From contig JAXDHL010000035.1 of the NCBI GenBank assembly GCA_034664525.1, positions 1-46,345 of the forward strand: a DNA stretch of 46,345 bases, in the 5' to 3' direction. Origin of the DNA: Solirubrobacteraceae bacterium. Lineage in GTDB: Bacteria; Actinomycetota; Thermoleophilia; Solirubrobacterales; Solirubrobacteraceae. Of the stretch, positions 11,037 through 44,969 are shown in pieces (the first letter of the stretch is position 1; every line of letters starts with the position of its first letter). Both the position numbers and the translations under genes were made by a program. The notes under the pieces were generated by a model. It did not search any database. It worked only from the letters and a program-made list of their open reading frames with translations, and was not told the DNA's origin.

Positions 11037-11037
11037 G

Positions 11038-14141: not shown

Positions 14142-15742
14142 GGCGAGAGCAGGAAGTCGAGGAGGTCCTGAGCCGACTGCCCGGAGGGCGTCGGCGTCGG
14201 GCTGGCGGTCTTGGAGCCGCCGAGCACCGGCTTCACCGGGGGCAGCAGCTTCGGCAGCTGGTCGAGCAACTGCTGGACGGGCGGCAGGCCGGGGACGTTC
14301 GGCGCCGGCGTCGCCGGCGGGGCGGGCGTGGAGGAGCCGGGCGCCGAGTTCTGCGGTTGGTTGCCGGAGCCGCCCTGCTTGCTCGACCCGGAGCGCTTGC
14401 GCGTGCTGGTGCTCCGCATCGTCGCCGTCATCGGCGGGCTCGGGTCCGGCGTCGTGATACCGGGCTGGTTCGGGCCGAGCGCCTGGTTGCAGTCCTTGTA
14501 GCGCTGCATCGAGGCCGCGTCCTTCTTGACGTCGTCGGCCGTCGTGTAGTTCGAGCACTGGTCCGGCAGGATGTCGAGCTTCAGCGAGTAGCCGCGCTGG
14601 TCGAAGATGTTGACCGCCAGCGACTGATCGAAGATGTACTGCAGCGGCGCCTCGAGGCCGGTGTAGCCCTTGCCGCCGGGCGAGTTCGGATCCGGCTCGA
14701 TCGCGTGCGAGCGGTCGTCGAGGTTGCTCAGGATCATCGCCAGGTTCTTCGCCGGCTCGCCGGTCGAGCCGCCCAGCGTGGCGAGGCGCGCGATCAGGCT
14801 CTGGCTGGCCTTCGCCGCCGTGCGGCCGACCTTCGACGTGTCGCCGAGCGAGGTCGTCGCCGGCTTCAGCGCGTTCGAGAACGGCTGCAGGGTGGACAGC
14901 AGGCTGCGCACGTTGCCGGAGGCGGCGCGCAGGTCGGCCAGCGCCGGGGTCTGCAGCCGCGCTGCCGTGCCGAGGTCGGTCATCGTCGGCGTCAGCTGGT
15001 CCAGGAAGCCGGGGAAGCGGCGGAACGTGTCGGCGAGCTGGGCGCGCCGGGCGGCCGTCGCCTCGGCGGTGTCCTTGGCGTTGACGACGAAGCGTCCGAC
15101 GTCCTGGCTGCGCTGGCCGAGCACCTTGAGGACCGTTCCCGAGTTGCGGCTCAGGTCCGTCAGCGTGCGGCGGTTGTCGGCCAGGATCTTGAGCACCTTG
15201 TTGGTGCTCGAGACGGCGGGCAGCGCGCGCCGGATCGTGGCGTTGAGGTCGTCGCCGCGGGCGGCGAGGCCGGCGCCGAGCTCGCCCAGGATGATCGAGA
15301 AGCGCTCGCGCTGCGGCATCCGCATGACGTTGAGCACGAGGTCGGGCGGGATCGGCGACTCGGTGTTCGTGACCGGGATGTGCGCGCCGCCGGCGAGCAC
15401 CTTGCCCTTCGTGCCCGGCTGGCAGTCGACGAAGTACTCGCCGATCAGCGACTGCGGGGCGACCGTGCAGTGCGCGTCGGAGCGCAGCGCGCCGAAGCCC
15501 TGGGCCTTCGTGACCTCGACGGTGACCAGCGCGCGGGCGTCCTTGCGTGAGACGTCGAGGTCCTTGATCGTGCCGACCGGGACGCCGCCGACCTTGAAGT
15601 CCGCGCCGTTGACGAGGCCGAACGCGTTGTCGAAGACGATCTTGTACGTCTTGCCGCCGGCGGAGCCGCCCGCGCCGAGGAGCGCGATGGTGCCGCCGAT
15701 CACGAAGACCGCGACCGCGGTGATGATGGCCGCGCGCCTCAC
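14138..15742 (-). CDS. Mce/MlaD-family protein (2nd of six) with Pro/Ser/Thr-rich C-terminal tail
   Basis: It starts at GTG 15742 (VRRAAIITAVAVFVIGGTIALLG), overlapping the upstream stop (GTGA). It has an MlaD core (FKVGGVPVGTI). The last ~105 aa are low complexity. Confidence 0.88.
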   Translation of the reverse strand: MRRAAIITAVAVFVIGGTIALLGAGGSAGGKTYKIVFDNAFGLVNGADFKVGGVPVGTIKDLDVSRKDARALVTVEVTKAQGFGALRSDAHCTVAPQSLIGEYFVDCQPGTKGKVLAGGAHIPVTNTESPIPPDLVLNVMRMPQRERFSIILGELGAGLAARGDDLNATIRRALPAVSSTNKVLKILADNRRTLTDLSRNSGTVLKVLGQRSQDVGRFVVNAKDTAEATAARRAQLADTFRRFPGFLDQLTPTMTDLGTAARLQTPALADLRAASGNVRSLLSTLQPFSNALKPATTSLGDTSKVGRTAAKASQSLIARLATLGGSTGEPAKNLAMILSNLDDRSHAIEPDPNSPGGKGYTGLEAPLQYIFDQSLAVNIFDQRGYSLKLDILPDQCSNYTTADDVKKDAASMQRYKDCNQALGPNQPGITTPDPSPPMTATMRSTSTRKRSGSSKQGGSGNQPQNSAPGSSTPAPPATPAPNVPGLPPVQQLLDQLPKLLPPVKPVLGGSKTASPTPTPSGQSAQDLLDFLLSP

Positions 15743-17115
15743 GGGCCCACCGGCTTGATCGACGCGTCGCAGTTGAAGTCGGCCGTCGGCTTGTAGGTCG
15801 TCGATCCGTCGCCGGGGTCGCGCTCGTTCGAGCCCGGACAGCGGTTGTTGCGGCCGAGCTTGGCGCCGGCCGCGAGGACGTCGTCGCGCAGCGCCGGCGG
15901 GATCGGCACCAGGTTGCCGGCGGGCGTGAACGTGAACGCGCTGAGCGCCAGGCCGGCGCGCGAGAACGAGCCGAGCGCGTCGTAGTCGCCCGAGGTCGAG
16001 AAGTCGTCGAACCAGCCGGTCAGCTCGGGCGCGTAGGGCCGGAAGAACGCCAGCTCGGGCGCGCTCTTGGTCAGCGAGTCGACGAGCTCGGGGAATGCGC
16101 CGCGGCGGGTGGCGCCGTTGACCTGGCGCTTGTCGAGTGCCGCCTTGGCCAGGTTCGGCTGCGCCTTCAGCAGCTCGACCAGGTCGTTGCCCTTGCCCGG
16201 TCGCTGGATCGTGCGGGCCAGGTCGCGGAACGTCGGCCGCGCGTCGCGGGCGAACGGGCGCAGGTCGGCGAGCAGCGGGCGCAGCTTGCGGACCACCGGC
16301 TTGGACGCCGACACCAGCGGGTCCAGGTCGTCGAGCGTGGCGCGCAGGTTGACGAACGTCGAGTTCGACTTGCGCAGGAACTCGGGCAGCTGGTGGATCG
16401 CCGAGGCGAGGTTCGTGTCCTGGTTGGCGAGCGCGGTCGAGACCTGGCCGAAGTTCGAGACCAGGCCGGCCAGGTCGTCCTGCTTGGCCGCCGCGTCGGT
16501 GACCAGGCGGCTCGTCTGCACGACGAAGCGCTCGAGCAACGGGTCGTTGCGGTCGAGCTCGGAGAACAGCCGCGAGGACGACGACAGGATCGGGTTGAGG
16601 TAGTGGATCGCGTCGTTGGCGGCCTGGGTGTGGCCGTCGGTCATGTCCGCGAAGCCCTTGATGACCGTCCGGCCGTCGGCGCGCACCTTCGGGTCGAAGA
16701 TGCCGAACAGCTGGTCGAGATCGACCGCGGACTCGGTGCTCGAGGCCGGCAGCGTCGCGCCGTTCGGGATCGCCTTGGCGTCCATCGGGCCCTGCTGGAG
16801 GTCGATGTAGCGGTTGGCGACGCCGGACAGCGACGCCTGGCGGACGACGGCCTGCGTGCCCTGCTTGAGCGGCGAGTAGTCGCCGCTGACCGAGATCGTC
16901 ACGATCGCCTGGCTGTCGGGCGTGAGGCCGATCTGCTTGACCTTGCCCACGGTGGCGCCCGCGACCTGGACGAGGTTGCCCTTGACGAGCTGGCTGGCGT
17001 TGTCGAGCCGCAGCTTGACCGTGTAGTCGGAGCCGCCGCCCAGCAGGAGCACGGCCAGCGCGACCGCGACGACGAGCACGGCGAGGACCGCGACAATCCG
17101 TCGCGCGCCGTTCAC
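15739..17115 (-). CDS. Mce/MlaD-family protein (1st of six)
   Basis: The preferred start is GTG 17115 (VNGARRIVAVLAVLVVAVALAVLLLGG), which has GGGAG 9 nt upstream. The ORF-track start, TTG 17157, is an alternative. It has an MlaD core (VQVAGATVGKV). Confidence 0.85.
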   Translation of the reverse strand: MNGARRIVAVLAVLVVAVALAVLLLGGGSDYTVKLRLDNASQLVKGNLVQVAGATVGKVKQIGLTPDSQAIVTISVSGDYSPLKQGTQAVVRQASLSGVANRYIDLQQGPMDAKAIPNGATLPASSTESAVDLDQLFGIFDPKVRADGRTVIKGFADMTDGHTQAANDAIHYLNPILSSSSRLFSELDRNDPLLERFVVQTSRLVTDAAAKQDDLAGLVSNFGQVSTALANQDTNLASAIHQLPEFLRKSNSTFVNLRATLDDLDPLVSASKPVVRKLRPLLADLRPFARDARPTFRDLARTIQRPGKGNDLVELLKAQPNLAKAALDKRQVNGATRRGAFPELVDSLTKSAPELAFFRPYAPELTGWFDDFSTSGDYDALGSFSRAGLALSAFTFTPAGNLVPIPPALRDDVLAAGAKLGRNNRCPGSNERDPGDGSTTYKPTADFNCDASIKPVGP

Positions 17116-17222
17116 GTGCCCCTGCTCCCAGCCTTGACCCCCATCCGCACCAGGCAAGGTACCCAGCAGTGTGGATCGGTGCGCCGGTCTCCAATGAACG
17201 TCAACGTAGGCTTAATCCGGTC
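17116..17222. promoter_or_regulatory. divergent intergenic region (mce operon / arfB promoters expected here)
   Basis: This is the only non-coding DNA upstream of both transcription units, and it is locally less GC-rich (ccaatgaacgtcaacgtaggcttaatcc). A TAGGCT (TAnnnT) hexamer at 17207-17212 lies 10 nt before the arfB ATG, which is compatible with a very short or absent leader. Confidence 0.3.
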
Positions 17223-31240: not shown

Positions 31241-34200
31241 ATGACTGACGCGACCGCGGCCCACCACGCGGCCGACGTCGCTCGCCTGCGGTTCCTGGAT
31301 GGCCCGGTCGCGGACGGCGTCTCCGAGCCGCTGCCCCCGTCGCGGTGGAAGCTGACCGACCTGATCGACGTGGACACGATCCAGTCGATCCAGGACACCT
31401 TCGCCTCGGCATTCGGCCTCCCGACCACGACGGTCAACGCCGACGGGTCGTCGGCGACCTCGATCACGCATCGGCAGCGGTTCTGCGAGGACCTGACGCG
31501 CGGCACGCCGCTGGGCGGGGTGCGCTGTCTCGCCTGCGACCGGTCGGCGATGGCGCGCGCCGGCCGCGACCACCGGCCGGCCATCTTCGAGTGCTGGAAC
31601 GGCCTGTACGACGCCGCGATCCCGATCGAGGTCAAGGGGGAGGCCGTCGGGTACTTCCTGGTCGGGCAGGTCCTGCACGGGCCCGCCGACGTCGACCGCC
31701 GGCGGGCCGTCGCCGCCGAGATCGGCGTCGACGCCGACGAGTACGTCGACGCCTTGCAGGAGGTCCGTCGGGTTCCGCTGGATCGCTACGAGGCGGCGGT
31801 GCGCAGCATGCACGTGCTCGGCCAGCTGATCGCGGACCAGGCGGCCGCCGCGATCGACAACCTCAGCGTCCTGCAGGAGGCGCGCGAGGCGCGTGACGAC
31901 GCATCGCGGTTGGTCGAGGAGATCGAGCGCATCATCGAGGGCGTGCGCGACGTCGGCGCGCCACGCGACTACCGGGGGACGCTCGACGCGATCGCGGACA
32001 ACCTCGAGCGTCTCGTGCCCTACGACTCATGCGTGATCCTCGTCGCCGAGGGCGACGAGCTCGTGCCGATGGTCGTGCGCGACCCCTACCCCGAGGCGAT
32101 GCGCCGCCACCGGCCGCGGATCGGCGAGGGGGTCGTCGGCCGGGTGGGGGCGACCGGAGTACCGCGGCGCATCGACGACGTGACCCGCGAGCCCGGGTTC
32201 GAGCCGGTGCCCGGCGTCCCGCTCGAGCCGGAGAGCGTCCTGGCGGTCCCGATGGTCTACGACCGGCGCATCTCGGGCGTGATCGTGCTCAGCCGCTTCA
32301 AGCGCCGGACGTTCAGCGAGCACGAGCTGCGGGTGCTGACGGTGTTCTCGGGCCAGGCATCCGTCGCCGCGGAGCTGTCCGTGCTGGCCGCCGAGAACGC
32401 GCGCCGCCGGCGGGACGAGGAGCTGTTCGGGCGGCTGCGCGGATCGGTCAGCGCGTCCTCGAGCGTCGCGGGGGCACTCGAGCAGATCGCCCTGGTCGGA
32501 CGTGAGCTGCTCGGCGCGGACGCGGCCGTCGCCCGCCTGGAAGCGGACGGGGCCGGGGTGCCCCGCGTGGCGTGCGCCGAGTTCGGCGACGCCGCGGCGG
32601 AGGCGCTGCTGCGAGCCCTGGCGCCCGACCTCGCCGCCGTCCTCGAGGACCGGCAGCCGCGCGTCGTCGCGCACGAGGGTGGTGAGGTGCTCGTCGTCGG
32701 GCTCGCCGTCGAGGACCCGATCGGCGTGCTGCTGCTCGTGCGCGGCGAGCCGGCAACGGAATGGGATGCCGCGGCCACCGGGTCGCTGGTCCAGCGGGCA
32801 TCGATCGGTCTCGGGCTCGCGCTCCTGAAGGACCGCGAGCGCCGGGCCTCCCGCCGGACCCGCCAGATGGCCGAGCTGGCCCGCGCGCTCGTGAGCGCCG
32901 CGGGCGAGGTCGACGCCCGCGCCGAGCTGCTGCTGGGCACCCCCGAGGTCGTGACCGCGGAGTGCTGCGCGGTGGTCTCCTTCGCCGACCGGCCGGAGGT
33001 CGCCGACGTCGAGTACCGCGACGGCCGGGAGACCGTGCGCTTCCAGGTGACGTTGCGAGGCCGCGCCCGGGTCGCAGCGCTGCGGATGCGCACCGAGGGC
33101 AGCCGCGAGCGCGCGCTGTTCGACGTCTGGGCGGACGCGGTCGTGGCCGAGCTCGCCCGGCGCGCCGGCACCGTGGTCCATCTGGCGGAGCCCCTGACCT
33201 CGGGAGAGGGCGTGCACGGCGCCCTGTGCGTGGGCTGGCGCCGGCCCGACGTCTCGCCCACCGCGGAGCAGGGCCGGGCGCTCGCCCTCCTGGCCGATAC
33301 CGCGTCGCCGGCCATCGCACGCCACACCGGAACCGGAGGCGCCGACACGGTGTTGCGGGCACGCGTGCGCGACCTGCAGGCGCTCGTGCGCTTCGCGGAG
33401 CGCACGCACGGAGCCGTGACCGCCGCGGCGATCGTGGAGGAGCTGCTCGCCGCACTGCGCGAGGCCGGTGCGCTCACGAGCGCCTTCCTCGTCGACGACG
33501 CCGGCGGAGTCGTGCTGGAGCCGGGGTCCGCACTCGCTGCCGACGCGGCCGCCGCCCTGGCCACCGGGCTCGTCCCGGACCTGCCGCCCGAGGGCGTGCA
33601 TCTCCGCCCCGGCGATGGCGAGGACGTGCTGGCGATCCCCTTGCGCCTCGCGGCCGGGGGCGACGCGGTCGTGATCGCGGTCGGCGGCGGGGTGAGCGAC
33701 CATCAGCGCGAGACCGTCCTGCTCGGCCTCGTCCATCACGCGGCGCTCGCGCTCGAGAGCGCCGCCGGCCACGAGCACGACCGCGCCGCGCTCACGCGGC
33801 TGGAGCAGGCAAACGCCGAGCTCGAACGCCGCCACGCCGAACTGGAGCGCATCCTCGCCGCGCACACCACGCTGACCGAGGCGGTCCTGGGCGGGCGTGG
33901 CCTCCAGTCGGCCGTGCGCTCGCTGAGCGAATCCGTCGACGGCGAGATCGTCATCGTGACGCCGCGCGATCGCGTGCTCGCCGCCTGGCCGCCGGACTGC
34001 ACGATCGACTGGCGCCCCGACGCCGACTCCGACACGCGGACCGTCGCCGTCGACGGTGAGCAGCATCTGACGTCCGCGCCGGCGCTCGTCGAGGGCGTCG
34101 TGCTGGCCTGGCTGATCGCGCGGACGCCCCAGGCGACGGGCGAGACGGAGCGCGCGGCGCTCGAGTACGGCGCCGTGCTGGCCGCGCTCGAGCTGATGCG

Positions 34201-35020
34201 CGAGCGCACGGCGATGGAGGTCGAGATCCGCCTCCGCGGCGACGTCCTGGACGAGCTCATCAGCGGCGAGTTCGTCGAGGACCTGATCGTCGGCCGCGGC
34301 CGCGCGCTCGGGTTCGACTTCACCCGCCCGGCCCGCGTGTACATCGTCGAGCCGTCGGCGCCGGGCGATCGTCCGCTGCAGCCGGAGGGCGCGCTCACCA
34401 GCCCGCACCCGCTGTACCGCACGGTGTTCGAGTGCGCGGGACAGTGGGGCGAGAACCTCGTGGCCCCTCGCGGCGCGGGCGTCCTGGTCGTCGTGTACGA
34501 GGACGACCGGGCGCCCATGCCCTTCGAGGACGTGCTGCAGCGCACGTGCCGCGAGCGCCTGAAGGGCACGCGCCTGACGATCGGGGCGGGAACCGCCTGC
34601 ACGCGCCCGGTCGACTACCGGCAGTCGTTCATGGCGGCGCGCCGCGGCGTGGACCTGATGCACCTGCTCGGGCGCGCCGACGACGTGTTCTCGTTCCGGC
34701 GCCGCCGGGTCGAGCACATGCTGCTGGAGACGTCGGATCCGCGGGCGCTGGTCTCGTTCGTCGCGACCTACGTCCGACCGCTGGACGAGTGGGACCGCCG
34801 CCATTCGTCGCAGCTGCGCAAGACGCTGGAGGCCGTGTTCGCGACCGGCTTCAACCTCGAGCAGGCGGCACGGACGCTTCACCTGCACGTGTCCACGCTG
34901 CGGTACCGGCTCAAGAAGATCGGTGAGCTGCTGGGCGTGGACCTCAAGGACGCCGACGTGCGCCTCGATGTGCAGGTTGCGCTCAAGGCCGCCCGGACCC
35001 TCGACGTCCACCGCGGCTGA
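31241..35020 (+). CDS. 1259-aa PocR-sensor / multi-GAF / PucR-type HTH transcriptional regulator
   Basis: The N-terminal PocR-like domain reads FCEDLTRGTPLGGVRCLACDRS...FECWNGLYDAAIPIEVKGEAVGYFLVGQV. There are at least one clear GAF-like module (res ~230-390, GEGVVGRV...AVPMVYDRRISGVIVLSR) and further GAF-like segments. The C-terminal PucR/CdaR HTH (LHLHVSTLRYRLKKIGELLGVDL) begins at nt 34874. Confidence 0.8.
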   Translation: MTDATAAHHAADVARLRFLDGPVADGVSEPLPPSRWKLTDLIDVDTIQSIQDTFASAFGLPTTTVNADGSSATSITHRQRFCEDLTRGTPLGGVRCLACDRSAMARAGRDHRPAIFECWNGLYDAAIPIEVKGEAVGYFLVGQVLHGPADVDRRRAVAAEIGVDADEYVDALQEVRRVPLDRYEAAVRSMHVLGQLIADQAAAAIDNLSVLQEAREARDDASRLVEEIERIIEGVRDVGAPRDYRGTLDAIADNLERLVPYDSCVILVAEGDELVPMVVRDPYPEAMRRHRPRIGEGVVGRVGATGVPRRIDDVTREPGFEPVPGVPLEPESVLAVPMVYDRRISGVIVLSRFKRRTFSEHELRVLTVFSGQASVAAELSVLAAENARRRRDEELFGRLRGSVSASSSVAGALEQIALVGRELLGADAAVARLEADGAGVPRVACAEFGDAAAEALLRALAPDLAAVLEDRQPRVVAHEGGEVLVVGLAVEDPIGVLLLVRGEPATEWDAAATGSLVQRASIGLGLALLKDRERRASRRTRQMAELARALVSAAGEVDARAELLLGTPEVVTAECCAVVSFADRPEVADVEYRDGRETVRFQVTLRGRARVAALRMRTEGSRERALFDVWADAVVAELARRAGTVVHLAEPLTSGEGVHGALCVGWRRPDVSPTAEQGRALALLADTASPAIARHTGTGGADTVLRARVRDLQALVRFAERTHGAVTAAAIVEELLAALREAGALTSAFLVDDAGGVVLEPGSALAADAAAALATGLVPDLPPEGVHLRPGDGEDVLAIPLRLAAGGDAVVIAVGGGVSDHQRETVLLGLVHHAALALESAAGHEHDRAALTRLEQANAELERRHAELERILAAHTTLTEAVLGGRGLQSAVRSLSESVDGEIVIVTPRDRVLAAWPPDCTIDWRPDADSDTRTVAVDGEQHLTSAPALVEGVVLAWLIARTPQATGETERAALEYGAVLAALELMRERTAMEVEIRLRGDVLDELISGEFVEDLIVGRGRALGFDFTRPARVYIVEPSAPGDRPLQPEGALTSPHPLYRTVFECAGQWGENLVAPRGAGVLVVVYEDDRAPMPFEDVLQRTCRERLKGTRLTIGAGTACTRPVDYRQSFMAARRGVDLMHLLGRADDVFSFRRRRVEHMLLETSDPRALVSFVATYVRPLDEWDRRHSSQLRKTLEAVFATGFNLEQAARTLHLHVSTLRYRLKKIGELLGVDLKDADVRLDVQVALKAARTLDVHRG

Positions 35021-36025: not shown

Positions 36026-37525
36026 ATGGACCATCACACCAACGGCAGCCCGGGCGCCGCAGCGGGCGACCTCGTCACCGACGCCGGAACGGGATCGTCG
36101 TCGGCGGCAGTGCTGACCGACGCCGGCGCCACGCCGCAGGCGGAGATCGAGGTCGCCGCGACGGTGTCACGCGAGGGCGACGGCGAAGCGTGGGCGCGAA
36201 CGCGCGACGAGCTCGCCCGCCGCGGCGTGGACTACTGCCTCGCGGCGTACGTCGACGTGCATGGGGTGCCGAAGGCCAAGGCGGTTCCGGTTGGCCACTT
36301 CACGCGGATGATGAAGGGCTCCGAGCTGTTCACCGGAGCCGCCCTCGACGGACTCGGCCAGGGCCCGAGCGATGACGAGCTGGCGGTGTGGCCGGACCTC
36401 GATGCGATCACGGTCCTGCCCTGGGAACGCACCGTCGCCTGGTGTCCGGGTCAGCTGCACTACCACGGCGAGCCATGGCCGCTGGACTCGCGGACGGTCC
36501 TGCGCCGCCAGCTCGACCGGGCCGCGGCGCTCGGGCTCCGCTTCAACCTCGGGATCGAGACCGAGTTCTATCTCGTGCGCCGCGAGGGCGACGGCATCGT
36601 CCCGGCCAATCCCAAGGACGTGCTGCCCAAGGCGGCCTACGACGTGACGGGGCTGCTCGAGAACCTCGGCTTCATGCACGAGATCGTCGGCCACATGAAC
36701 GAGCTCGGCTGGGACGTGCACTCCTTCGATCACGAGGACGCCAACAGCCAGTTCGAGCTCGACTTCCACTACGCGGACGGCATGGCGATGGCCGACCGCT
36801 ACACGCTGTGGCGGCTGATGGCCAAGACGGTGGCGCGCCGCCACGGGGTCGAGGCCACGTTCATGGCCAAGCCGTACGCCGACCGGACGGGCAACGGCGG
36901 CCACTTCAACATGTCGCTCGCCGACCTGGAGAGTGGCCGCAACGTGTTCGCCGATCCCGGCGATCCGCGCGGCGGCGGCGTGTCGACGCTCGCCTACCAG
37001 TTCATCGCCGGCATCCTGCGGCACGCGCCGGCGATCAGCGCGGTGTGTTCGCCGACCGTCAACTCGTACAAGCGGCTGGTCAAGAGCGGCTCGATGACGG
37101 GCTACACGTGGGCGCCGGTCTACATCTCCTACGGGCGCAACAACCGCACCCACATGCTGCGGCTGCCCTACGGCAGCCCGCGCGTCGAGTCCCGCGCGGT
37201 GGACACCTCGTGCAACCCGTACCTCGCCGCGGCGATGCTGCTCGGGGCCGGGCTGGAGGGGATCGAGCAGAAGCTCGACCCGGGTGACCCGATCCAGCTG
37301 AACATGTACGAGCAGAGCGACGCCCGGCTCGAGGAGCTGCGGGTCGGCGTGCTTCCGCGGACCCTGCTCGAGGCGGTCGAGGCCTTCACCGCCGACGATC
37401 TCGCCGACGACGTCTTCGGGTCCGATCTCAAGCGCGAGTACGCCGAGGTGAAATCGAAGGAGTGGTGGGACTACCACAACACCGTCTCGGCCTGGGAGTA
37501 CGACCGCTACCTGGAGTTCTTCTAG
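36026..37525 (+). CDS. glutamine-synthetase-family ligase (GS-like 1; gamma-glutamyl-amine ligase candidate)
   Basis: GS catalytic-domain motifs are GIETEFYL, KPYADRTGNGGHFNMS (ATP site), NSYKRLV, RNNRTHMLRLP and SCNPYLA. A ~45-aa low-complexity N-terminal extension still shows coding-like codon bias. Confidence 0.85.
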   Translation: MDHHTNGSPGAAAGDLVTDAGTGSSSAAVLTDAGATPQAEIEVAATVSREGDGEAWARTRDELARRGVDYCLAAYVDVHGVPKAKAVPVGHFTRMMKGSELFTGAALDGLGQGPSDDELAVWPDLDAITVLPWERTVAWCPGQLHYHGEPWPLDSRTVLRRQLDRAAALGLRFNLGIETEFYLVRREGDGIVPANPKDVLPKAAYDVTGLLENLGFMHEIVGHMNELGWDVHSFDHEDANSQFELDFHYADGMAMADRYTLWRLMAKTVARRHGVEATFMAKPYADRTGNGGHFNMSLADLESGRNVFADPGDPRGGGVSTLAYQFIAGILRHAPAISAVCSPTVNSYKRLVKSGSMTGYTWAPVYISYGRNNRTHMLRLPYGSPRVESRAVDTSCNPYLAAAMLLGAGLEGIEQKLDPGDPIQLNMYEQSDARLEELRVGVLPRTLLEAVEAFTADDLADDVFGSDLKREYAEVKSKEWWDYHNTVSAWEYDRYLEFF

Positions 37526-37527
37526 CG

Positions 37528-38517
37528 ATGGCCCTCTTCGGTCGCCGGAGCGCGCCGAGCGGCGGCGAGAAGACACGGATCTTCTTCGTCTCCGACGTCC
37601 ATGGCTCGACGGTGTGCTTCAAGAAGTTCATCAACGCCGCGTCGTTCTACGGCGCCGACGTGCTCATCCTGGGCGGTGACGTGACCGGCAAGATGGTCGT
37701 CCCGATCGCCCGCCAGGCCAGCGGGCAGTACCTGACGCAGTTCGCCGGCTCGGAGCACCGCTTCGACAGCGAGGCCGACCTGCGGTCGTTCGTGACGCGG
37801 ACCGAGAACATGGGCTTCTACCCCGCCGTCATGGACGAGGACGAGTTCCTGAGCGCGAAGGCCTCGCCCGAGGCCCAGGACGCGCTCTTCCGGCAGCTCG
37901 TGGAGGAGCGCCTGCGCGAGTGGATCGCCTACGCCGACGAGCGGCTCGCCGACAGCGAGGTGCCCGTCTACGCCGCGCCCGGCAACGACGACTTCCACGA
38001 GGTGGACGACATCCTCGCCTCGTCGAAGCGCATCCGGCTGATCGAGATGCAGGTGGTGCCGCTCGCCGGCCGGTACAAGATCATCACGTCAGGCTGGTCG
38101 AACCCGACGCCCTGGGACACCGACCGGGAGTGCAGCGAGGACGAGCTCGCCGAGCGGCTGGGGGAGATGATCGAGGAGGTCGACGACTTCGACCACTGCA
38201 TCTTCAACCTGCACGTGCCGCCGCACGACGCGACGATCGATCTCTGCCCCAAGCTCGACGAGCACATGCAGGTCGTCTACGACCTCGGCAACCCCGTGAT
38301 GGCCCCAGCCGGGAGCACCGCGGTGCGCGAGGCCATCGAGCGCTACCAGCCCCTGCTCGGGCTTCACGGGCACATCCACGAGGGCCGCGGCGAGGCGCGC
38401 ATCGGCCGCACGGTCTGCCTCAACCCGGGGAGCGTGTACTCGGAGGGCGTGCTGAACGGCCTGCTCGTGACGCTCGAAGGGTCCCGGGTTCGCGATTTCC
38501 ACTTCACACAGGGCTGA
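37528..38517 (+). CDS. calcineurin-like metallophosphoesterase
   Basis: It starts at ATG 37528, 2 nt after the GS-like 1 stop. Motifs are FFVSDVHGS (DxH), GGDVTGK (GD), APGNDD, NLHVPP and LHGHIHEG (GHxH). Confidence 0.85.
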   Translation: MALFGRRSAPSGGEKTRIFFVSDVHGSTVCFKKFINAASFYGADVLILGGDVTGKMVVPIARQASGQYLTQFAGSEHRFDSEADLRSFVTRTENMGFYPAVMDEDEFLSAKASPEAQDALFRQLVEERLREWIAYADERLADSEVPVYAAPGNDDFHEVDDILASSKRIRLIEMQVVPLAGRYKIITSGWSNPTPWDTDRECSEDELAERLGEMIEEVDDFDHCIFNLHVPPHDATIDLCPKLDEHMQVVYDLGNPVMAPAGSTAVREAIERYQPLLGLHGHIHEGRGEARIGRTVCLNPGSVYSEGVLNGLLVTLEGSRVRDFHFTQG

Positions 38518-38539
38518 GGACGAGGAGACGAGGAGAAGC

Positions 38540-40219
38540 ATGTCCACTGCACATGAATCGTCGGGTACCGGTCACAGCGGACTCGCGTCGGGCGCCGTGA
38601 CGACCGGCCTCGGCACCGGCACCGCCGCCGGCGGCGCGGGCGATCGGGTCTTCCTGCGCAAGGCGTCGGGGCTGATCAAGACGGCCGGCACGACCGACAT
38701 CTTCATCTTCAACATCGGCACGATCTCGATCGGCATCGGGATCGGCTCGATCGTGCTCTACGGGCCCTCGGTCTACCCGGGCGGGAATCTCGCGCTCGGC
38801 GCCGTCCTGGCCTGCCTGATGATGGCGCTGATCGCCGGCGGCATGATCGCCTGGACGCTGACCATCCCGCGCTCGGGCGGGATCTACCCGTTCGGAAGCC
38901 GGGCGCTGCCCCCGGCGCTCGCGTTCACGGCGAGCTTCGTCGAGTGCATCTGCTGGCTGTTCCTGCTCTCGGTCGCGGCCTACTGGATCACGACGATCGG
39001 CCTGGCGCCGACCTTCACCGTGCTCGGGACGATGACCGGCCACGGGTGGATGACCACGCTCGGGCAGGACCTGACGCACAAGGGCGTCACGTTCGCCGTC
39101 AGCGGCGTGATGCTCATCATCGCGGCCGCGATCCTCGCCTCGGGAATGCGCCGCTTCTTCGCCTCCCAGAAGCTCGTCTTCGGCGTGGCCATCATTGGCT
39201 CGCTCGTGCTGATCGGCGCCCTGCTGTTCGGCTCGCGCGCACAGTTCGTGGCCAACTTCAACCACGACTTCCACGGGACCGCCTCCTACGCCGGCGTCAT
39301 CGACGCCGCCCACAAGGGCGGCTGGAGCGACCCCGGCTTCTCGCTCAAGCAGACGCTGCTGGCGTCCAACTGGTTCTTCCTGCCGCTGATCGGCGCCGCG
39401 TTCTCGATCGCGATCGGCGGCGAGATCAAGTCGGCGACCAAGGCGCAGCCGTACGGCATGCTGAGCGCGATCGTGGTCAGCGCGGTGATCTGGGTGATCA
39501 CGATGGGCCTCGCGAACAAGGTGTTCGGCTACGAGTTCCTCGGCTCGGTCGGCAACAACAGCCTCAACGGCGGGATGTCGACGCCGACGACGCCGTGGAT
39601 CACGCTGCTGGCCGGCGTGCTCACCGGATCGCCGCTGGTCACGATCATCATCTCGCTGTCCTTCATCGCCTGGATCTGGATGTGGATCCCGGCGATGCAG
39701 GCCTACGTGCAGCGGGCGATGCTCGCATGGTCCTTCGACCGCGTGGCGCCGGCGGCGCTCGGGCGCGTGTCCAGCCGGACGCACACGCCGATCGCCGCGA
39801 TCGCCGTCGTGCTCGCCCTGTCGCTCCTGACGCTCGCGGCGTTCGTGTGGATCAGCTACTTCCAGACGCTGATCGTCTTCATCGAGATCGCGCTGCTCGC
39901 CTGGGGGCTGGTGCTCGGCGCCGGCGTCGTGTTCCCGTACCGGCGACCGGAGATGTACGAGAAGTCGCCGATCGCCAACAAGCGGCTGTTCGGGCTCCCG
40001 TTGATGACCGTGCTGTGCGGCGCCGGCTGCGTCGGGGCGACGTTCTACTTCTTCGTCCTGTTCTTCGACCAGTTCGCCGCCGGCCACGACCCGGTGCGCC
40101 TGGCGATCATGGCCGGCTGCTTCGTCGCGGGCCTGCTGGTGTTCGCCGTCACGCGCTACGTCCGCCGGGGCCAGGGCTTCGACGTCGACCTCGCCTTCAA
40201 GGAGATCCCGATCGAGTAG
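38540..40219 (+). CDS. APC-superfamily amino acid/amine permease
   Basis: 559 aa with about 12-13 TM helices. The N-terminal Gly/Ser/Thr-rich cytoplasmic tail is followed by typical APC helices (IFIFNIGTISIGIGIGS, PRSGGIYPFGS). Confidence 0.8.
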   Translation: MSTAHESSGTGHSGLASGAVTTGLGTGTAAGGAGDRVFLRKASGLIKTAGTTDIFIFNIGTISIGIGIGSIVLYGPSVYPGGNLALGAVLACLMMALIAGGMIAWTLTIPRSGGIYPFGSRALPPALAFTASFVECICWLFLLSVAAYWITTIGLAPTFTVLGTMTGHGWMTTLGQDLTHKGVTFAVSGVMLIIAAAILASGMRRFFASQKLVFGVAIIGSLVLIGALLFGSRAQFVANFNHDFHGTASYAGVIDAAHKGGWSDPGFSLKQTLLASNWFFLPLIGAAFSIAIGGEIKSATKAQPYGMLSAIVVSAVIWVITMGLANKVFGYEFLGSVGNNSLNGGMSTPTTPWITLLAGVLTGSPLVTIIISLSFIAWIWMWIPAMQAYVQRAMLAWSFDRVAPAALGRVSSRTHTPIAAIAVVLALSLLTLAAFVWISYFQTLIVFIEIALLAWGLVLGAGVVFPYRRPEMYEKSPIANKRLFGLPLMTVLCGAGCVGATFYFFVLFFDQFAAGHDPVRLAIMAGCFVAGLLVFAVTRYVRRGQGFDVDLAFKEIPIE

Positions 40220-40225
40220 CGGGAC

Positions 40226-40251
40226 GGCGCCGGGCGCGAGCGCCCGGCGCC
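40226..40251 (+). terminator. perfect 11-bp GC hairpin inside the operon (terminator/attenuator or mRNA-processing element)
   Basis: The structure is GGCGCCGGGCG-cgag-CGCCCGGCGCC, starting 7 nt after the permease stop in a 104-nt gap. No U-tract follows. Confidence 0.4.
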
Positions 40252-40323
40252 TCCGCCCACGGCTCCCGCCCCGGCTCCGCCCGGCTGACCACCAATCGCC
40301 CCCGCAAGCGCTCAGAGAGGCCC

Positions 40324-41100
40324 ATGACCGTCACCAACCAGCAGTTCGTCGACGAGGGGCTCCGCCTCGTCGACGAGGGGGCGGAGCGAGGATTGCGACT
40401 GCGCATCCTCGGCTCGCTCGCCATCCGCCTGCACTGCCCGCAGAACCTTCCGCTGCTGGAGGCGATGGAGCGCGCCGTTCCGGCCGACATCGACTTCGCC
40501 GCCGGGAGCCGGCAGGCGCGGGACGTCGTCCGCTTCCTCAAAGAGCAGGGGTACGTCGAGGACGAGCGGATCACGATCGCGACCGAGGGCACGCGCTACT
40601 GCTTCGAGCACCCGGATACGCGCCTCAGCCTCGACGTGTTCGTGGAGCGCCTGGACTTCTGCCATCGGATCCCCTTCGAGGACCGTCTGGACCTGGACGC
40701 TCCGACCCTGCCCACGCCGGATCTGCTGCTCGGGAAGCTCCAGATCGTCGAGATCAACCTGAAGGACATCCAGGACGCGATCGTCCTGCTGCTCGAGCAC
40801 GCGGTGGTCGATCACCGGAACGGACCGGAGAGCATCGACGCGTCCTACGTCGCCGAGCTCCTGCGCGGCGATTGGGGCTTCCACTACACCGTCATGGAGA
40901 ACCTGGAGAAGGTGCGCCGGTTCATCCCGCAGTTCGGCGCCATCGGCCCCGAGCAGGCGAAGCTGCTCAACGAGCGCATCGACGCCCTCGAACGGGTCAT
41001 CGAGGAGGCGCCGAAGACGCGCAAGTGGCGCATGCGGGCGAAGGTCGGCCCGAAGGTCCGGTGGTATCAGGAGGTCAGCGAGAAGGAAGCGGGGCTCTAG
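40324..41100 (+). CDS. uncharacterised 258-aa protein, possible minimal nucleotidyltransferase fold
   Basis: This is the last 258 codons of the fused 38944..41100 ORF, with strong G/C third-position bias. ILGSLAIRLH...AVPADIDFAAG resembles the G[SG]...DxD signature of pol-beta-type/AbiEii-like nucleotidyltransferases, although the spacing is long. Its stop directly abuts the next ATG (TAGATG). Confidence 0.5.
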   Translation: MTVTNQQFVDEGLRLVDEGAERGLRLRILGSLAIRLHCPQNLPLLEAMERAVPADIDFAAGSRQARDVVRFLKEQGYVEDERITIATEGTRYCFEHPDTRLSLDVFVERLDFCHRIPFEDRLDLDAPTLPTPDLLLGKLQIVEINLKDIQDAIVLLLEHAVVDHRNGPESIDASYVAELLRGDWGFHYTVMENLEKVRRFIPQFGAIGPEQAKLLNERIDALERVIEEAPKTRKWRMRAKVGPKVRWYQEVSEKEAGL

Positions 41101-42459
41101 ATGGTGCAGTCCCTGCTCACCGCCCGCGCGCTCCGCGACGGGAACCCGCCCACGGACCGCGACGGGCTGCTCGCCTGGGTCCAGGAGCGCGGCATCACGC
41201 GCGTGGACCTGAAGATCGGCGACCTCACCGGCCGTCTGCGCCATCTGTCGATGCCGGCGCGCAAGCTCGCGGACGCGCTCGACCACGGTGTCGGCTTCGC
41301 CGGCAGCCACTACGGCTTCAGCGGACCGGTCGACGAGGACATGGTCATGGTCCCGGACGCGTCGACGGCCTGGGCCGATCCCTTCGCCGAGGTCCCTGCG
41401 GTGTCGTTCCTCGCGCAGCCGGTGCGCGCCGGCACCACCGAGCGCTTCGCCCGCGACCCGCGCGCCGTCGCCGAGCGGGCGGAGGCGTACCTCGTGTCGA
41501 CCGGTGTGGCGACGCACAGCCTCTGGCTGCCGGAGCTCGAGTTCCACCTGGCCCCGGCTGGGGGGCTGGTGCACGACGGCGGTGCGGCGGCGCACCGCGA
41601 CGGCTATCACGCCAGCCCGCCCGTCGATCGGCACGCCGGCTTCCGGGCCCGCGCGGTGCAGCTGCTGGAGGCGGCGGGCGTCCCGGTCAAGTACGACCAC
41701 CACGAGACGGGCGTCGAGGGTCAGATGGAGATCGAGCTCGACTTCGGCGGTCTGGTCCGCACCGCCGACGTCGTGCTGCTCGGCAAGTACATCCTGCGCA
41801 ACCTCGCCGTCCAGGAGGGGCTGCAGGCCGTGTTCCTCCCCAAGCCGATGGCGGACGCGTCGGGCAACGGCATGCATGTGCACCTGAAGCTGCTCGACGA
41901 CGAGCGCCCCGTGTTCGCCGGCGACGGCTACGCCGGGCTGTCGCGGGTCGCCCTCTCGTTCGTCGCCGGTGTGCTCGTGCACGTGCGCTCGCTCGCCGCG
42001 TTCACCAACCCGTCGACGAACTCCTACCGGCGCCTCGTGCCGGACATGGAGGCTCCCGTCTCCGCCAGCTTCGCCCGCGGCGACCGGACGGCCGCCATCC
42101 GCATCCCCGGCTACGCGGTGCGGCCCGCCGACCGGCGCATGGAGTACCGGCCGCTGGACGCCACGGCGAACGCCTACCTCGCGTTCTCCGCACTGCTGCT
42201 CGCGGGCCTCGACGGCGTGGAGCGCGGGCTGGATCCCGTGGCGCTCGGCTTCGATCCCGCCGCCGAGCCGCCCACGCGCTTCCCGCGCCACCTCGAGGAG
42301 GCGCTCGACGCGCTGGAGGACGACCACGAGTACCTCGAGCGGGGCGGGGTGTTCCCCACGATGCTGCTCGAGGAGTGGCACGCGACGAAGCGCGAGGAGG
42401 TGCGCAGGCTCGAGCTGCGCCCACACCCCGCCGAGTTCGCGATGTACCTGGATCTGTGA
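41101..42459 (+). CDS. glutamine-synthetase-family ligase (GS-like 2, type-I-like)
   Basis: Motifs are LPELEFHL, KPMADASGNGMHVHLK (ATP site), NPSTNSYRRLVP, DRTAAIRIP and ATANAYLA. The beta-grasp N-domain is present (DMVMVPDASTAWADPF). Confidence 0.85.
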   Translation: MVQSLLTARALRDGNPPTDRDGLLAWVQERGITRVDLKIGDLTGRLRHLSMPARKLADALDHGVGFAGSHYGFSGPVDEDMVMVPDASTAWADPFAEVPAVSFLAQPVRAGTTERFARDPRAVAERAEAYLVSTGVATHSLWLPELEFHLAPAGGLVHDGGAAAHRDGYHASPPVDRHAGFRARAVQLLEAAGVPVKYDHHETGVEGQMEIELDFGGLVRTADVVLLGKYILRNLAVQEGLQAVFLPKPMADASGNGMHVHLKLLDDERPVFAGDGYAGLSRVALSFVAGVLVHVRSLAAFTNPSTNSYRRLVPDMEAPVSASFARGDRTAAIRIPGYAVRPADRRMEYRPLDATANAYLAFSALLLAGLDGVERGLDPVALGFDPAAEPPTRFPRHLEEALDALEDDHEYLERGGVFPTMLLEEWHATKREEVRRLELRPHPAEFAMYLDL

Positions 42460-43145
42460 GCGAGTCCGTGGCATTCCCGGAGTTCGCGCTGGCCGACCTC
42501 GGTGGCCGGATCTGGACCCGCGCCGACCTCAGCGGGGTCCGCACCGTCGCCTTCTGCTTCGCGAGCTGGTGAACGTGCAAGGACGACCTGCCCGTGTGGC
42601 AGCGGTACTGGGAGCAGCGAGGCCGTGACTTCACGATGCTGGCCATCGCTCAGGACGCGCGAGGCGAAGCCGCGGTCGCGGAGAGCGTGCGCGCGTACGG
42701 TGTCGCCTTCCCCGTTCTGCTCGATCCGGCGAGCACGATCGCCGCGGCGCTCGGCTTCCGCATCGTGCCGTCGGGCTTCCTCGTGGACGAGGACGCCCGG
42801 ATCCGCCGGCGGCACACCGAGGACTTCTCGATCGGGGATCCGCGCGTGCGGGCCACGGTGGACGCGTTCCTCGACGGGCGCGCGGTGGAGCCAGGACCCC
42901 GGCAGGAGCAGATGGATCCCCGCGCCCTGGAGCAGTTCGCCGAGGGCGTGGCCGCCCAGATGGCCGGAGACGGGCCGCGGGCGCTTCGACTCTGGCGCCG
43001 GGCGCTCGAGCTCGACCCGGAGAACTTCCTCATCCGGTCGCAGATCTGGTCCGCGGAGCACCCGGACCGGTTCTGGCCGGTCGTCGACCGCCAATGGCAG
43101 GAGCTGCAACTGATGAAGGACGGATATGACAAGCCCCTTCCTTGA
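42456..43145 (+). CDS. ResA/TlpA-like thioredoxin-fold redoxin with C-terminal TPR-like segment, interrupted by in-frame TGA at the catalytic position (candidate selenoprotein, or pseudogene)
   Basis: GTG 42456 overlaps the GS-like 2 stop (GTGA). The frame reads VSESVAFPEFALADLGGRIWTRADLSGVRTVAFCFASW-TGA-TCKDDLPVWQRYWEQRGRDFTMLAIAQD... in one frame with ORF 42594..43145. Codon bias is continuous across the TGA. Confidence 0.6.
42570..42602 (+). other. candidate UGA-selenocysteine recoding site plus downstream hairpin
   Basis: TGA 42570-42572 replaces the first active-site Cys (FASW-U-TC-KDDLP). A hairpin, CTGCC-cgtgt-GGCAG (42588-42602), starts 15 nt downstream and has GU in its loop. I can pair only 5 bp by eye. 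Confidence 0.35.
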
Positions 43146-43653
43146 CCTGGGGCTCCCCGGCGCCGTGTCGCCGGGCAGGCTCTCGCGGCAGGAGGTCGAG
43201 GAGCTCCTCGAGTTGCGGCTCATCGCGAACCTCGCGACCCTGGACGCGCACGGCGGGGTCCACCTGGCGGCGATGTGGTTCCGGCGCGAGGGCGACACGC
43301 TGCTGATGCCGACCTCCCAGCACACCCGCAAGGCCCGCAACCTCCGGCGCCGGGCGCACGCGGCGGTGACGATCGACCAGTCGCGTAACGGCCTGGATCT
43401 GCGCGGCGTGCTCGTCCGCGGCGCGGTCGAGCTGGTCACCGGCGAGCCGGCGCGGGCGCTCAATCGCTCCGTGCACCTGCGCTACGTGACCGAGGCGGGG
43501 CTCGCGGACCCCGAGGTCGCCGCATACCTGTCCGGCGGCGACGACCTGACCATCCGCGTCCACATGAACGAGATCGTGACCTGGAATCTCGCCGACCGGC
43601 CGGCCGGCCGCGCACTGCGCGCGAGCGGCCAGGTCCATCCGCTCGACACCTGA
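43126..43653 (+). CDS. pyridoxamine 5'-phosphate oxidase-family (PPOX/F420- or FMN-binding split-barrel) protein
   Basis: 175 aa. LIANLATLDAHGGVHLAAMWF...KARNLRRRAHAAVTID is typical of the PPOX split barrel. It has the RBS AAGGA and overlaps the redoxin end by 20 nt. Confidence 0.75.
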   Translation: MTSPFLDLGLPGAVSPGRLSRQEVEELLELRLIANLATLDAHGGVHLAAMWFRREGDTLLMPTSQHTRKARNLRRRAHAAVTIDQSRNGLDLRGVLVRGAVELVTGEPARALNRSVHLRYVTEAGLADPEVAAYLSGGDDLTIRVHMNEIVTWNLADRPAGRALRASGQVHPLDT

Positions 43654-43670
43654 ACCCGAGGAGAACCACC

Positions 43671-44969
43671 ATGACCGTGCTCCATCCCCCTGTGCGTCAA
43701 GCCGCCAACGAGGAGGCGCTCCAGCGCTTCTATGACGCCGACCCCATCCTCGTGGACGTCCGGCCGGCCGTCGAGGTCGTCCCCGGCATGACCCGGGACA
43801 CGATCCTGACCTCCGGCGCGCCGATGCCCTGGGACGCCTACACCGGCGGGCAGCGGAGCGCCGTCATCGGGGGTGCCCTGTACGAGGGGCTGGCCGGCAG
43901 CGCGGAGGAGGCCGACGAGAAGCTGCGGGACGGCCGGATCCGGCTCGCCGCGTGCCACGACCACAGCTGCGTCGGCTCGCTCGCCGGCATCTACACCGCC
44001 TCGATGCCCGTCTTCGTGGTCGAGAACCCGCGGCACGGCAACGTCGCCTACTGCAACTGCTTCGAAGGCCCGTCGCGCAAGCGGCTCAACTACGGCGTCT
44101 ACGACGACGAGGTCCGCGACAGCCTGATCTGGCTCGAGCAGGTGGCGGCCCCGGTGCTGGCCGCGGCACTGCGCGAGATCGACGGCGGAGTGCCGCTGCG
44201 TCCGATCATGCGCCGGGCGCTGAACCTCGGCGACGAGCTGCACAGCCGCAACACCGCGGCGACGATGCTCTTCACGCGCGAGCTCTACCTGCACCTGTTG
44301 CACGTCGCCGAGCTGATGCCCGAGCAGGTCCGCGAGACCGTGTCGTTCCTGGGCAGCAACGACTACTTCTTCCTGCGCCTCTCGATGGCGGCGTCGAAGG
44401 CGATCGCCGACGCCGCGCGGGACGTCGAGGGCTCCTCGCTCGTGACCGCCATGACCTTCTCGTGCCAGGAGTTCGCCATCCGGGTGAGCGGGCTCGGCGA
44501 CGAGTGGTTCCGGGCCCCGCTGCCGGGGATCGACGCGAAGCTCTTCGACGGCTACACGGTCGACGACATCGAGTTCATGGGCGGCGAGAGCATCATCAAC
44601 GAGACCGTCGGCCTCGGCGGGTTCGCCCAGGCGGCCGCCTTCCCGCTGCAGGACTATCAGGGCGGTGACGCCGATGCCATGGTGCGCATGAACCTCGCGA
44701 TGTACGAGATCACGGCGGGCGAGCACCCCGTGTTCAAGATCCCGTACCTCGGGTTCCGCGGCACGCCGACGGGCATCGACGTGCACCGGGTCGTCGCGAC
44801 GGGGACCGTCCCGGTGATGGACATCGGGGTCGCGGGCCGCACGGGCGGCCAGATCGGCGCCGGCGTCCTGCGGGCGCCGCTGGGCTGCTTCGAGGCCGCC
44901 GCGGACGCCTACGCCCGGGCGTACCCGTCCGAGGCGCCGGCCACCGGCGGGCAGCCGACGGTTCTGTGA
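43671..44969 (+). CDS. DUF1116 / YlbE-like protein
   Basis: 432 aa. By recollection it resembles the YlbE family found beside fdrA in allantoin/oxamate clusters (CHDHSCVGSLAGI, GESIINETVGLGGFA). It has the RBS GAGGAG. The family assignment needs a profile search. Confidence 0.55.
   Translation: MTVLHPPVRQAANEEALQRFYDADPILVDVRPAVEVVPGMTRDTILTSGAPMPWDAYTGGQRSAVIGGALYEGLAGSAEEADEKLRDGRIRLAACHDHSCVGSLAGIYTASMPVFVVENPRHGNVAYCNCFEGPSRKRLNYGVYDDEVRDSLIWLEQVAAPVLAAALREIDGGVPLRPIMRRALNLGDELHSRNTAATMLFTRELYLHLLHVAELMPEQVRETVSFLGSNDYFFLRLSMAASKAIADAARDVEGSSLVTAMTFSCQEFAIRVSGLGDEWFRAPLPGIDAKLFDGYTVDDIEFMGGESIINETVGLGGFAQAAAFPLQDYQGGDADAMVRMNLAMYEITAGEHPVFKIPYLGFRGTPTGIDVHRVVATGTVPVMDIGVAGRTGGQIGAGVLRAPLGCFEAAADAYARAYPSEAPATGGQPTVL

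Follow-up and report, generated by a model that had tools for sequence, protein, structure and literature searches.

Selenoproteins of the redoxin type, with selenocysteine (Sec) at the CxxC position, are well known. One such family, 'Prx-like (UGC-containing)', was described from the Global Ocean Sampling (GOS) metagenome (PMC2398784) and counted in 15 genomes (Peng et al.). The NCBIfam collection holds a model, NF041054, for the 'ResA-like WAxxUGC motif-containing protein (long)', and the term 'WAxxUGC' was not met in the literature that we searched. Here we describe a redoxin gene at positions 42456-43145 on the forward strand of contig JAXDHL010000035.1 from a Solirubrobacteraceae bacterium (assembly GCA_034664525.1). 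The stretch analysed comprises positions 1 to 46,345 of this contig, has a GC content of 72.5%, and is called the window below. The gene is interrupted by an in-frame TGA, which the first-pass annotation of the window, made from the letters alone, had proposed as the Sec codon of a U-x-C site in a ResA/TlpA-like redoxin. That proposal is supported by the pairing of Cys and TGA among homologues, by conservation on both sides of the TGA and by constraint on a hairpin that follows it; very probably the window gene is a selenoprotein gene with a functional Sec codon, Sec insertion itself being predicted from sequence. The WAxxUGC family that the first-pass annotation had named does exist and is related, NF041054 being the best NCBIfam match of the window protein, but membership does not hold at 94.2 bits vs a cutoff of 300; among the relatives, P0002 scores 79 bits and the long Cys form P0080 230 bits. 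None of the curated NCBIfam models reaches its cutoff for the redoxin family (ResA NF002854, 43.5 bits vs 170; TlpA NF047696, 17.5 bits vs 230).

The redoxin frame and its homologues

On the window sequence one frame runs from GTG 42456 to 43145, and TGA 42570-72 is its sole internal stop. It translates as VSESVAFPEFALADLGGRIWTRADLSGVRTVAFCFASW, then the TGA, then TCKDDLPVWQ..., in which a Cys stands two codons past the TGA and is followed by KDDLP. The start codon overlaps the stop of an upstream glutamine synthetase-like (GS-like) gene (TGA 42457-59, a GTGA overlap). The bias towards G or C at third codon positions (GC3) passes unbroken across the internal TGA, at 0.92 on its upstream side and 0.89 on its downstream side within the one frame. 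The mechanical open reading frame (ORF) call begins at GTG 42594 and loses the active site. On all of these points the first-pass annotation had read the frame correctly. The parts of the gene, including a hairpin that resembles a selenocysteine insertion sequence (SECIS), are the following:

42456-43145, + strand: redoxin gene, whole frame, with GTG start, internal TGA at 42570-72 and stop TGA at 43143-45
42456..42569, + strand: N-terminal 38 codons of the redoxin, covering strands beta1-beta3 of the thioredoxin fold and ending in ...FCFASW; alternative start at GTG 42468
42570..42572, + strand: in-frame UGA, the proposed Sec codon, residue 39 and the U of U-T-C
42573..43145, + strand: rest of the redoxin coding sequence, with T40, Cys41 (TGC 42576-78), redoxin core, TPR module, tail and stop TGA
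42588..42602, + strand: SECIS-like hairpin, with stem CUGCC 42588-92, loop CGUGU 42593-97 and stem GGCAG 42598-602
42903..43142, + strand: C-terminal helical module of one TPR-like repeat and a near-invariant tail, with a Pfam TPR_2 match, PDB consensus-TPR matches and four AlphaFold2 helices

A search of the protein collection gave 79 close relatives or clusters, and homologous DNA was compared in 19 species-representative genomes and 76 metagenome contigs; the genomes belong mostly to Gaiellales, Gaiellaceae, Solirubrobacterales and unclassified Actinomycetota metagenome-assembled genomes (MAGs). About 9 of the 79 homologues are full-length (233-240 aa) and read FASW-C-T-C at the TGA column. 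About 70 are called at 147-187 aa, starting just past this column and lacking the active site. Across all loci the column holds TGA in 66 distinct sequence contexts and TGC or TGT in nine, and in the 19 species-level genomes it holds TGA in 14 and TGC or TGT in five. The consensus around it is F-[AS]-[ST]-W-U-[T/I/L]-C-[KR]-[ED]-Q-L-P-[VG]-W-Q, and the tblastn matches in the 19 genomes run from query residues 1-10 through the protein end. The same TGA in 66 distinct homologues is far beyond chance. Looking for Cys or TGA in this column was a check that the first-pass annotation had itself put forward, and the outcome is in its favour: the in-frame UGA aligns with a Cys of homologues, the Cys/Sec pair by which bacterial selenoproteins are recognized. 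The Cys forms make up one clade of eight nested among the Sec forms in a neighbour-joining tree, plus one separate sequence, which implies at least two Sec/Cys switches. The nearest independent copy of the window gene is on L096, a JGI contig from another sample that is 93.6% identical to the window over 1270 nt (81 differences) and shares this TGA, the GTGA overlap and the loop CGUGU.

Translation in the redoxin frame and purifying selection both extend to the codons upstream of the TGA. Over the 28 upstream codons of the 66 Sec forms, divergence at codon positions 1, 2 and 3 is 0.31, 0.26 and 0.47, and downstream it is 0.24, 0.26 and 0.40. The pooled ratio of nonsynonymous to synonymous differences per site (pN/pS) in 26 disjoint close pairs amounts to 0.25 for 30 upstream codons and to 0.32 for codons +12 to +60. 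At least 36 codons are open upstream of the TGA in all 66 sequences, and they align in frame without insertions or deletions among the Sec forms. Coding conservation on both sides of the UGA, a further mark of selenoprotein genes, is present in the 14 species-level genomes with TGA. No conserved start codon was found past the TGA: at codon +8, 36 sequences have GTG and 29 have GGG, and this variation explains the two classes of short database calls (183 aa and ~169 aa).

Several individual sequences deserve mention. An extra Cys, Cys34 in the window protein (42555-42557), lies five residues before Sec (F-C-F-A-S-W-U-T-C) and is present in 55 of the 66 Sec forms and seven of the nine Cys forms. 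The Sec form on L091 (6097-6140) has a further in-frame TAG 12 codons past the TGA (CGT TAG TGG, where relatives have Tyr/Ala-Trp), possibly a pseudogene or an assembly error. Contig L004 (CAMCVN010000023.1), entitled 'MAG: Bifidobacterium breve', has a Thermoleophilia-type cluster with a Cys form that near the active site is almost identical to that of L006 ('Actinomycetota bacterium'); the MAG of L004 is probably mislabelled or contaminated. A Sec-form copy outside the Actinomycetota was found on L019 (a Candidatus Dormibacteraceae MAG), with the rest of the cluster upstream on the opposite strand, and could reflect horizontal transfer or mis-binning.

With Cys in place of Sec, the 229-aa product matches the Pfam families AhpC-TSA (PF00578, 42.6 bits vs a threshold of 26) and Redoxin (PF08534, 39.5 vs 26.6), both covering residues 6-127. 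A weak TPR_2 match follows at residues 159-190, and sequence similarity to PDB entries reaches down to E = 1e-13. The structural comparison uses an AlphaFold2 model of the Cys homologue P0002, which is 60% identical to the window protein (mean predicted local distance difference test score 91.4). Residues 1 to ~145 of this model match 3kcm, ResA (1su9, 1st9), CcmG and DsbE in Foldseek with a probability of 1.00 and template modelling (TM) scores of 0.78-0.84 (target-relative). The residue of the Sec column lies directly before helix alpha1, and in alignments with PDB chains its counterpart is the first Cys of W-C-x-x-C, a one-residue deletion preceding the second Cys; the TGA thus stands at the first active-site Cys, where the first-pass annotation had put it. 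From residue ~150 onward the model has four helices, namely one TPR-like repeat and a near-invariant tail with the motif DPxNFLIRSQIW..EHP.RFWP.VDR.WQ.LQL..EGYDKPLP, and this module recurs across the wider superfamily, long forms included. The active site comes after only 38 residues, and the fold begins its first strand near residue 9, which leaves no room for a signal peptide or anchor of the ResA/TlpA type. Judged by the length of the N-terminus (no dedicated signal-peptide predictor was run), the redoxin is probably leaderless and cytoplasmic. From sequence and model, we predict a thiol-disulfide oxidoreductase of the ResA/TlpA fold with a U-T-C motif, the chemistry being that expected of such a fold.

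The hairpin behind the internal UGA

In the window the stem of the hairpin begins 15 nt and its loop 20 nt after the UGA, and two more pairs (C42584-G42604 and G42585-C42603) are possible over a 2-nt bulge. Most members of the family have G-CUGCC / CG[U/G]GU / GGCAG-C, with the stem from 14 nt and the loop from 20 nt after the UGA. The hairpin was compared with a published model of the bacterial SECIS (bSECIS; PMC13188914), and it agrees with that model in its 5-nt loop, in the G at loop position 2 followed by U or G, in its stem of 5-6 bp and in the distance of 20 nt from UGA to loop. The first-pass annotation had called the hairpin, at these same positions, compatible with a bacterial SECIS, and so it is.

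An RNA-level synonymous constraint at the hairpin is specific to the TGA forms and is the decisive evidence for an RNA element. The Pro codon of the loop (codon +7) is CCC in 62 of 63 Sec forms, though CCG is preferred for Pro (49% vs 37%). Over the 32 conserved 4-fold columns of 63 genes, third-position entropy is 0.12 bits at Pro+7 and 0.94-1.84 bits at the other 31. Codon +8 ends in G in 65 of 66 sequences, and where it encodes Gly it is GGG in 29 of 30 cases, though GGC is preferred. Pooled synonymous differences per site (pS) amount to 0.084 over codons +4 to +11, which span the hairpin, and to 0.21-0.24 elsewhere. Among the nine Cys forms, Pro+7 is CCG in eight, five different loops are found, and Arg+11, the supplier of the sixth pair, has been lost. 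RNAalifold and pair counting revealed one compensatory swap, from G-C to C-G, in one clade of three sequences.

The hairpin extends beyond the close relatives. Two divergent superfamily members found by profile search, L097 and L098, likewise have TGA in the column (W-A-S-W-U-A-C); the hairpin of L098 is identical, and at an equal offset the lower-GC L097 carries UUGCC-UGUAU-GGCAG. Scanning more generally for an in-frame TGA followed by an NG[GU]GU-loop hairpin gave 74 hits in the redoxin family plus one further hit that is likely due to chance, and no other selenoprotein candidate.

Sec insertion weighed against other readings

We propose the following course of events. Ribosomes would initiate at GUG 42456, probably through translational coupling with the GS-like gene upstream, as the overlap of the redoxin start with the GS-like stop suggests. 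A complex of SelB, GTP and Sec-tRNASec, held by the hairpin at 42588-42602, would insert Sec as residue 39 at UGA 42570, and translation would run on to UGA 43143 to give a 229-residue selenoprotein. By analogy with the chemistry of the thioredoxin fold, Sec39 would be the attacking nucleophile just before helix alpha1, and Cys41 would resolve the intermediate by way of a tight, strained selenenylsulfide ring. Through its TPR module and tail the redoxin probably docks onto a partner protein, whose gene most likely lies in the same conserved cluster (see below).

Several results weigh against Sec insertion here. No tRNA (ARAGORN), no Rfam hit and no SelA, SelB or SelD domain were found in the 46-kb window, and none of selA, selB, selC and selD turned up in the flanking sequence of 98 loci; ARAGORN, run on the window and 72 related loci, found no tRNA-Sec; and tblastn with E. 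coli SelD and SelA sequences, serving as probes only, gave no match in 770 kb of related sequence. Genes of the Sec machinery are normally unlinked to their target genes, so their absence from the window and from the locus flanks is uninformative. Rfam returned no SECIS family, either at the gathering threshold over the whole window or at permissive E-values over 42500-42700. The folding energy is in no member better than that of dinucleotide shuffles (z from -1.6 to +1.6, with +1.58 for the window), and the covariation is a single event in a stem whose sequence the conserved peptide L-P-x-W-Q partly determines. The window itself has a weak hairpin: its copy and that of L096 have GAC, not CAG, at codon +5, which is unique to these two among the 66 Sec contexts and removes the sixth G-C pair, making this the weakest variant. 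The window stem has 5 bp, with ~-7 kcal/mol for the hairpin alone and a pair probability of ~0.37 in the ensemble. The minimum free energy (MFE) is -8.9 kcal/mol for the window (45 nt) and -12 to -20 kcal/mol for other Sec forms, and the MFE structure of L096 is a different fold. Finally, the N-terminal 38 codons of window and L096 differ by five nonsynonymous changes and one synonymous change, a small sample.

As for the lineage, SelD, SelA and SelB were scored positive in the cultured Solirubrobacterales Solirubrobacter soli, Solirubrobacter sp. URHD0082, Patulibacter americanus and Conexibacter woesei Iso977N (Peng et al. 2016, Table S1); Thermoleophilia are not among the taxa in the supplements of the tRNA-Sec paper. 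A reassignment of TGA was considered and rejected: TGA ends 24 of the 34 window genes and is a normal stop there.

The weak hairpin, the nonsynonymous changes in the N-terminal codons and the lack of Sec machinery in the window would all suit a decaying relic, in which the family as such encodes a selenoprotein but the UGA of the window lineage terminates translation, leaving at most a C-terminal fragment devoid of the active site. We think this very improbable, since the part of the gene past the Sec codon is under purifying selection like its flanking genes, with nonsynonymous to synonymous rate ratios (dN/dS) between window and L096 of 0.16 for this part, 0.14 for the upstream gene and 0.08 for the downstream gene. 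The frame, the TGA, FCFASW-U-TC and the loop CGUGU are also intact in both contigs. Stems of 5 bp are found in other members too, with CAA at codon +5 (8 of 64 sequences are without the sixth pair), and the five amino-acid changes fall at family-variable positions. A simple error of sequencing or assembly at the TGA, which the first-pass annotation had kept as an alternative, is ruled out by L096 and by the 66 distinct sequences, from many samples and genomes, that have the same TGA; together with a recent private nonsense mutation, which the same sequences oppose, it retains a next to negligible chance.

Two further alternatives concern the family as a whole, and we rate both as very improbable. 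Were the UGA a true stop everywhere, each gene would yield a 38-aa peptide and a separately initiated protein of ~170-183 aa, as some 70 of the 79 database clusters have it and as GTG 42594, a possible start, would allow. Such an arrangement would split the thioredoxin fold at its active site, whereas the Cys-form orthologues are continuous; nor does it fit with upstream codons that are kept in frame, free of indels, by purifying selection, or with a codon +8 that alternates between GTG and GGG in place of a conserved start. The UGA might instead be read through in some other way than by Sec, for instance by a near-cognate Trp or Cys tRNA with stimulation by the hairpin, so that a sulfur or Trp protein would result. 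A short and thermodynamically unexceptional hairpin would be in keeping with this. However, Cys codons are the only alternative to TGA in this column, which is the mark of Sec/Cys exchange; the loop conforms to the SelB-type consensus; the class is already known for the Sec trait; and related UxC proteins of the TlpA/Prx-like type are catalogued as selenoproteins. Sec insertion at UGA 42570 is therefore the reading that we carry into the comparisons below.

Gene neighbourhood and relation to known families

The genes around the redoxin that bear on its setting are listed here:

31241-35020: PocR-GAF-PucR regulator, often near the cluster in related loci
40330-41100: protein of 256 aa, without family match (Pfam and NCBIfam negative)
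41101..42459, + strand: GS-like gene (Pfam Gln-synt_C and Gln-synt_N; NCBIfam below cutoff), its stop overlapping the redoxin start
43126..43653, + strand: PPOX/F420-type gene (Pfam PNPOx_N; NCBIfam TIGR03618 below cutoff), overlapping the redoxin 3' end by 20 nt

A conserved cluster, found at window positions 36026-44969 and in most loci, comprises a type III glutamine synthetase (TIGR03105, 546 bits), a metallophosphoesterase, an APC-type permease, the redoxin, an AllG-like protein (PF06545), the 256-aa protein and the PPOX/F420-type protein. The AllG-like protein adjoins the redoxin in 65 loci, the PPOX/F420-type gene belongs to the cluster in 34, and the 256-aa cluster protein has no match in Pfam or NCBIfam. 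In the window the redoxin overlaps both of its neighbours (by 4 and 20 nt), which is consistent with a single operon. The GS-like gene at 41101-42459 is an extra gene inserted immediately upstream of the redoxin and adjacent to it in few related loci. It scores below the cutoffs for GlnA, type III glutamine synthetase and gamma-glutamylputrescine synthetase, and at 55-69% identity it is common only to L012, L061, L082, L084 and L091. Elsewhere in the window, a run of MlaD/Mce-type genes occupies 8140-17157 on the - strand (three scanned as MlaD-positive and two more assigned from their frame only). Opposite to it, on the + strand, lie long shadow ORFs of high GC3 that could mislead an ORF-based reading.

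The conserved cluster suggests a role of the redoxin in a nitrogen-compound pathway and gives a concrete handle on the function of the enzyme. It is a tentative idea, and one that we would not yet favour, that the redoxin is the dedicated TPR-tethered redox partner of this Gaiellales/Solirubrobacterales cluster, that nitrogen-compound catabolism is selenium-dependent there, and that the strained one-residue selenenylsulfide does chemistry beyond that of CxxC redoxins. For annotation, the redoxin gene occurs widely in soil Actinobacteria and is routinely entered, wrongly, as truncated; once the Sec codon is recognized, many Gaiellales and Solirubrobacterales genomes and soil metagenomes regain a complete enzyme. 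For biology, the gene would mean that Sec is used outside formate dehydrogenase in abundant, mostly aerobic soil Actinobacteria.

In the wider superfamily, a profile search found 44 representatives at E <= 1e-30 and 632 at E <= 1e-10, a set that includes some TPR-only contaminants. C-x-C is the motif of its full-length members, x being H, Q, Y, T, I or G, and many others are truncated at the same point. In five proteins (P0102, P0184, P0191, P0230 and P0196) the Sec column is occupied by Ser, Ala, His or Asp, and one or both redox Cys are missing (e.g. WASW-S-G-S); they keep the TPR tail and may be redox-inactive paralogues. In P0116 (441 aa), FCWASW-C-Y-C and the TPR tail are fused to a second AhpC/Prx-like domain with WCPYC. 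On L097, from a lower-GC organism, a glutaredoxin gene precedes the W-A-S-W-U-A-C Sec form (38-465), and a 46-aa N-terminal piece is called there as a separate 'AhpC-TSA/Redoxin' gene.

Compared with known thioredoxin-like proteins, the window protein resembles ResA, TlpA and CcmG (DsbE) in its fold and in the position of the nucleophile before helix alpha1. Unlike them, it has U-x-C instead of C-x-x-C, an extra TPR module, apparently neither signal peptide nor anchor, and no adjacent cytochrome-maturation genes. The eukaryotic SELENOF (Sep15; PMC9304195), compared by description, likewise combines a thioredoxin-like fold, a one-residue-spaced Sec motif and an extra partner-binding domain, but its C-x-U motif is reversed with respect to U-x-C, and it is a eukaryotic protein of the endoplasmic reticulum with its SECIS in the 3' untranslated region. 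A bacterial thioredoxin-like selenoprotein of PF13192, also compared by description, shares the UxC motif and differs in Pfam family, PF13192 not being among the matches of the window protein.

The closest relation is with NF041054. Both have the thioredoxin/TlpA fold and the motif [WF]-A-x-x-U-x-C, with Sec first and Cys two residues on, and in both the motif is followed by the L-P-x-W-Q peptide and the hairpin; the C-terminal TPR-plus-tail module is shared with long forms such as P0080, P0160 and P0221. Unlike the NF041054 protein of ~354 aa, the window protein has 229 aa and matches from profile position 81 of 354, the N-terminal domain of ~80-150 aa being absent; the long forms carry ~95-180 extra N-terminal residues relative to it. 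In place of W-A-x-x-U-G-C it reads F-A-S-W-U-T-C, with F for W and T for G, and the middle residue of the motif in the Sec forms is T, rarely I or L, and G in none of 66. The window subfamily is also set apart by its occurrence, mainly in Gaiellales and Solirubrobacterales, and by its own conserved gene cluster. With it, the motif of the UGC-type TlpA/Prx-like family broadens to U-x-C in general (x = T, A, I, L or G). By sequence, then, the window protein represents a sister subfamily, or a new and unannotated branch, of the predicted "UGC-containing TlpA/Prx-like" selenoprotein family rather than a new kind of system.

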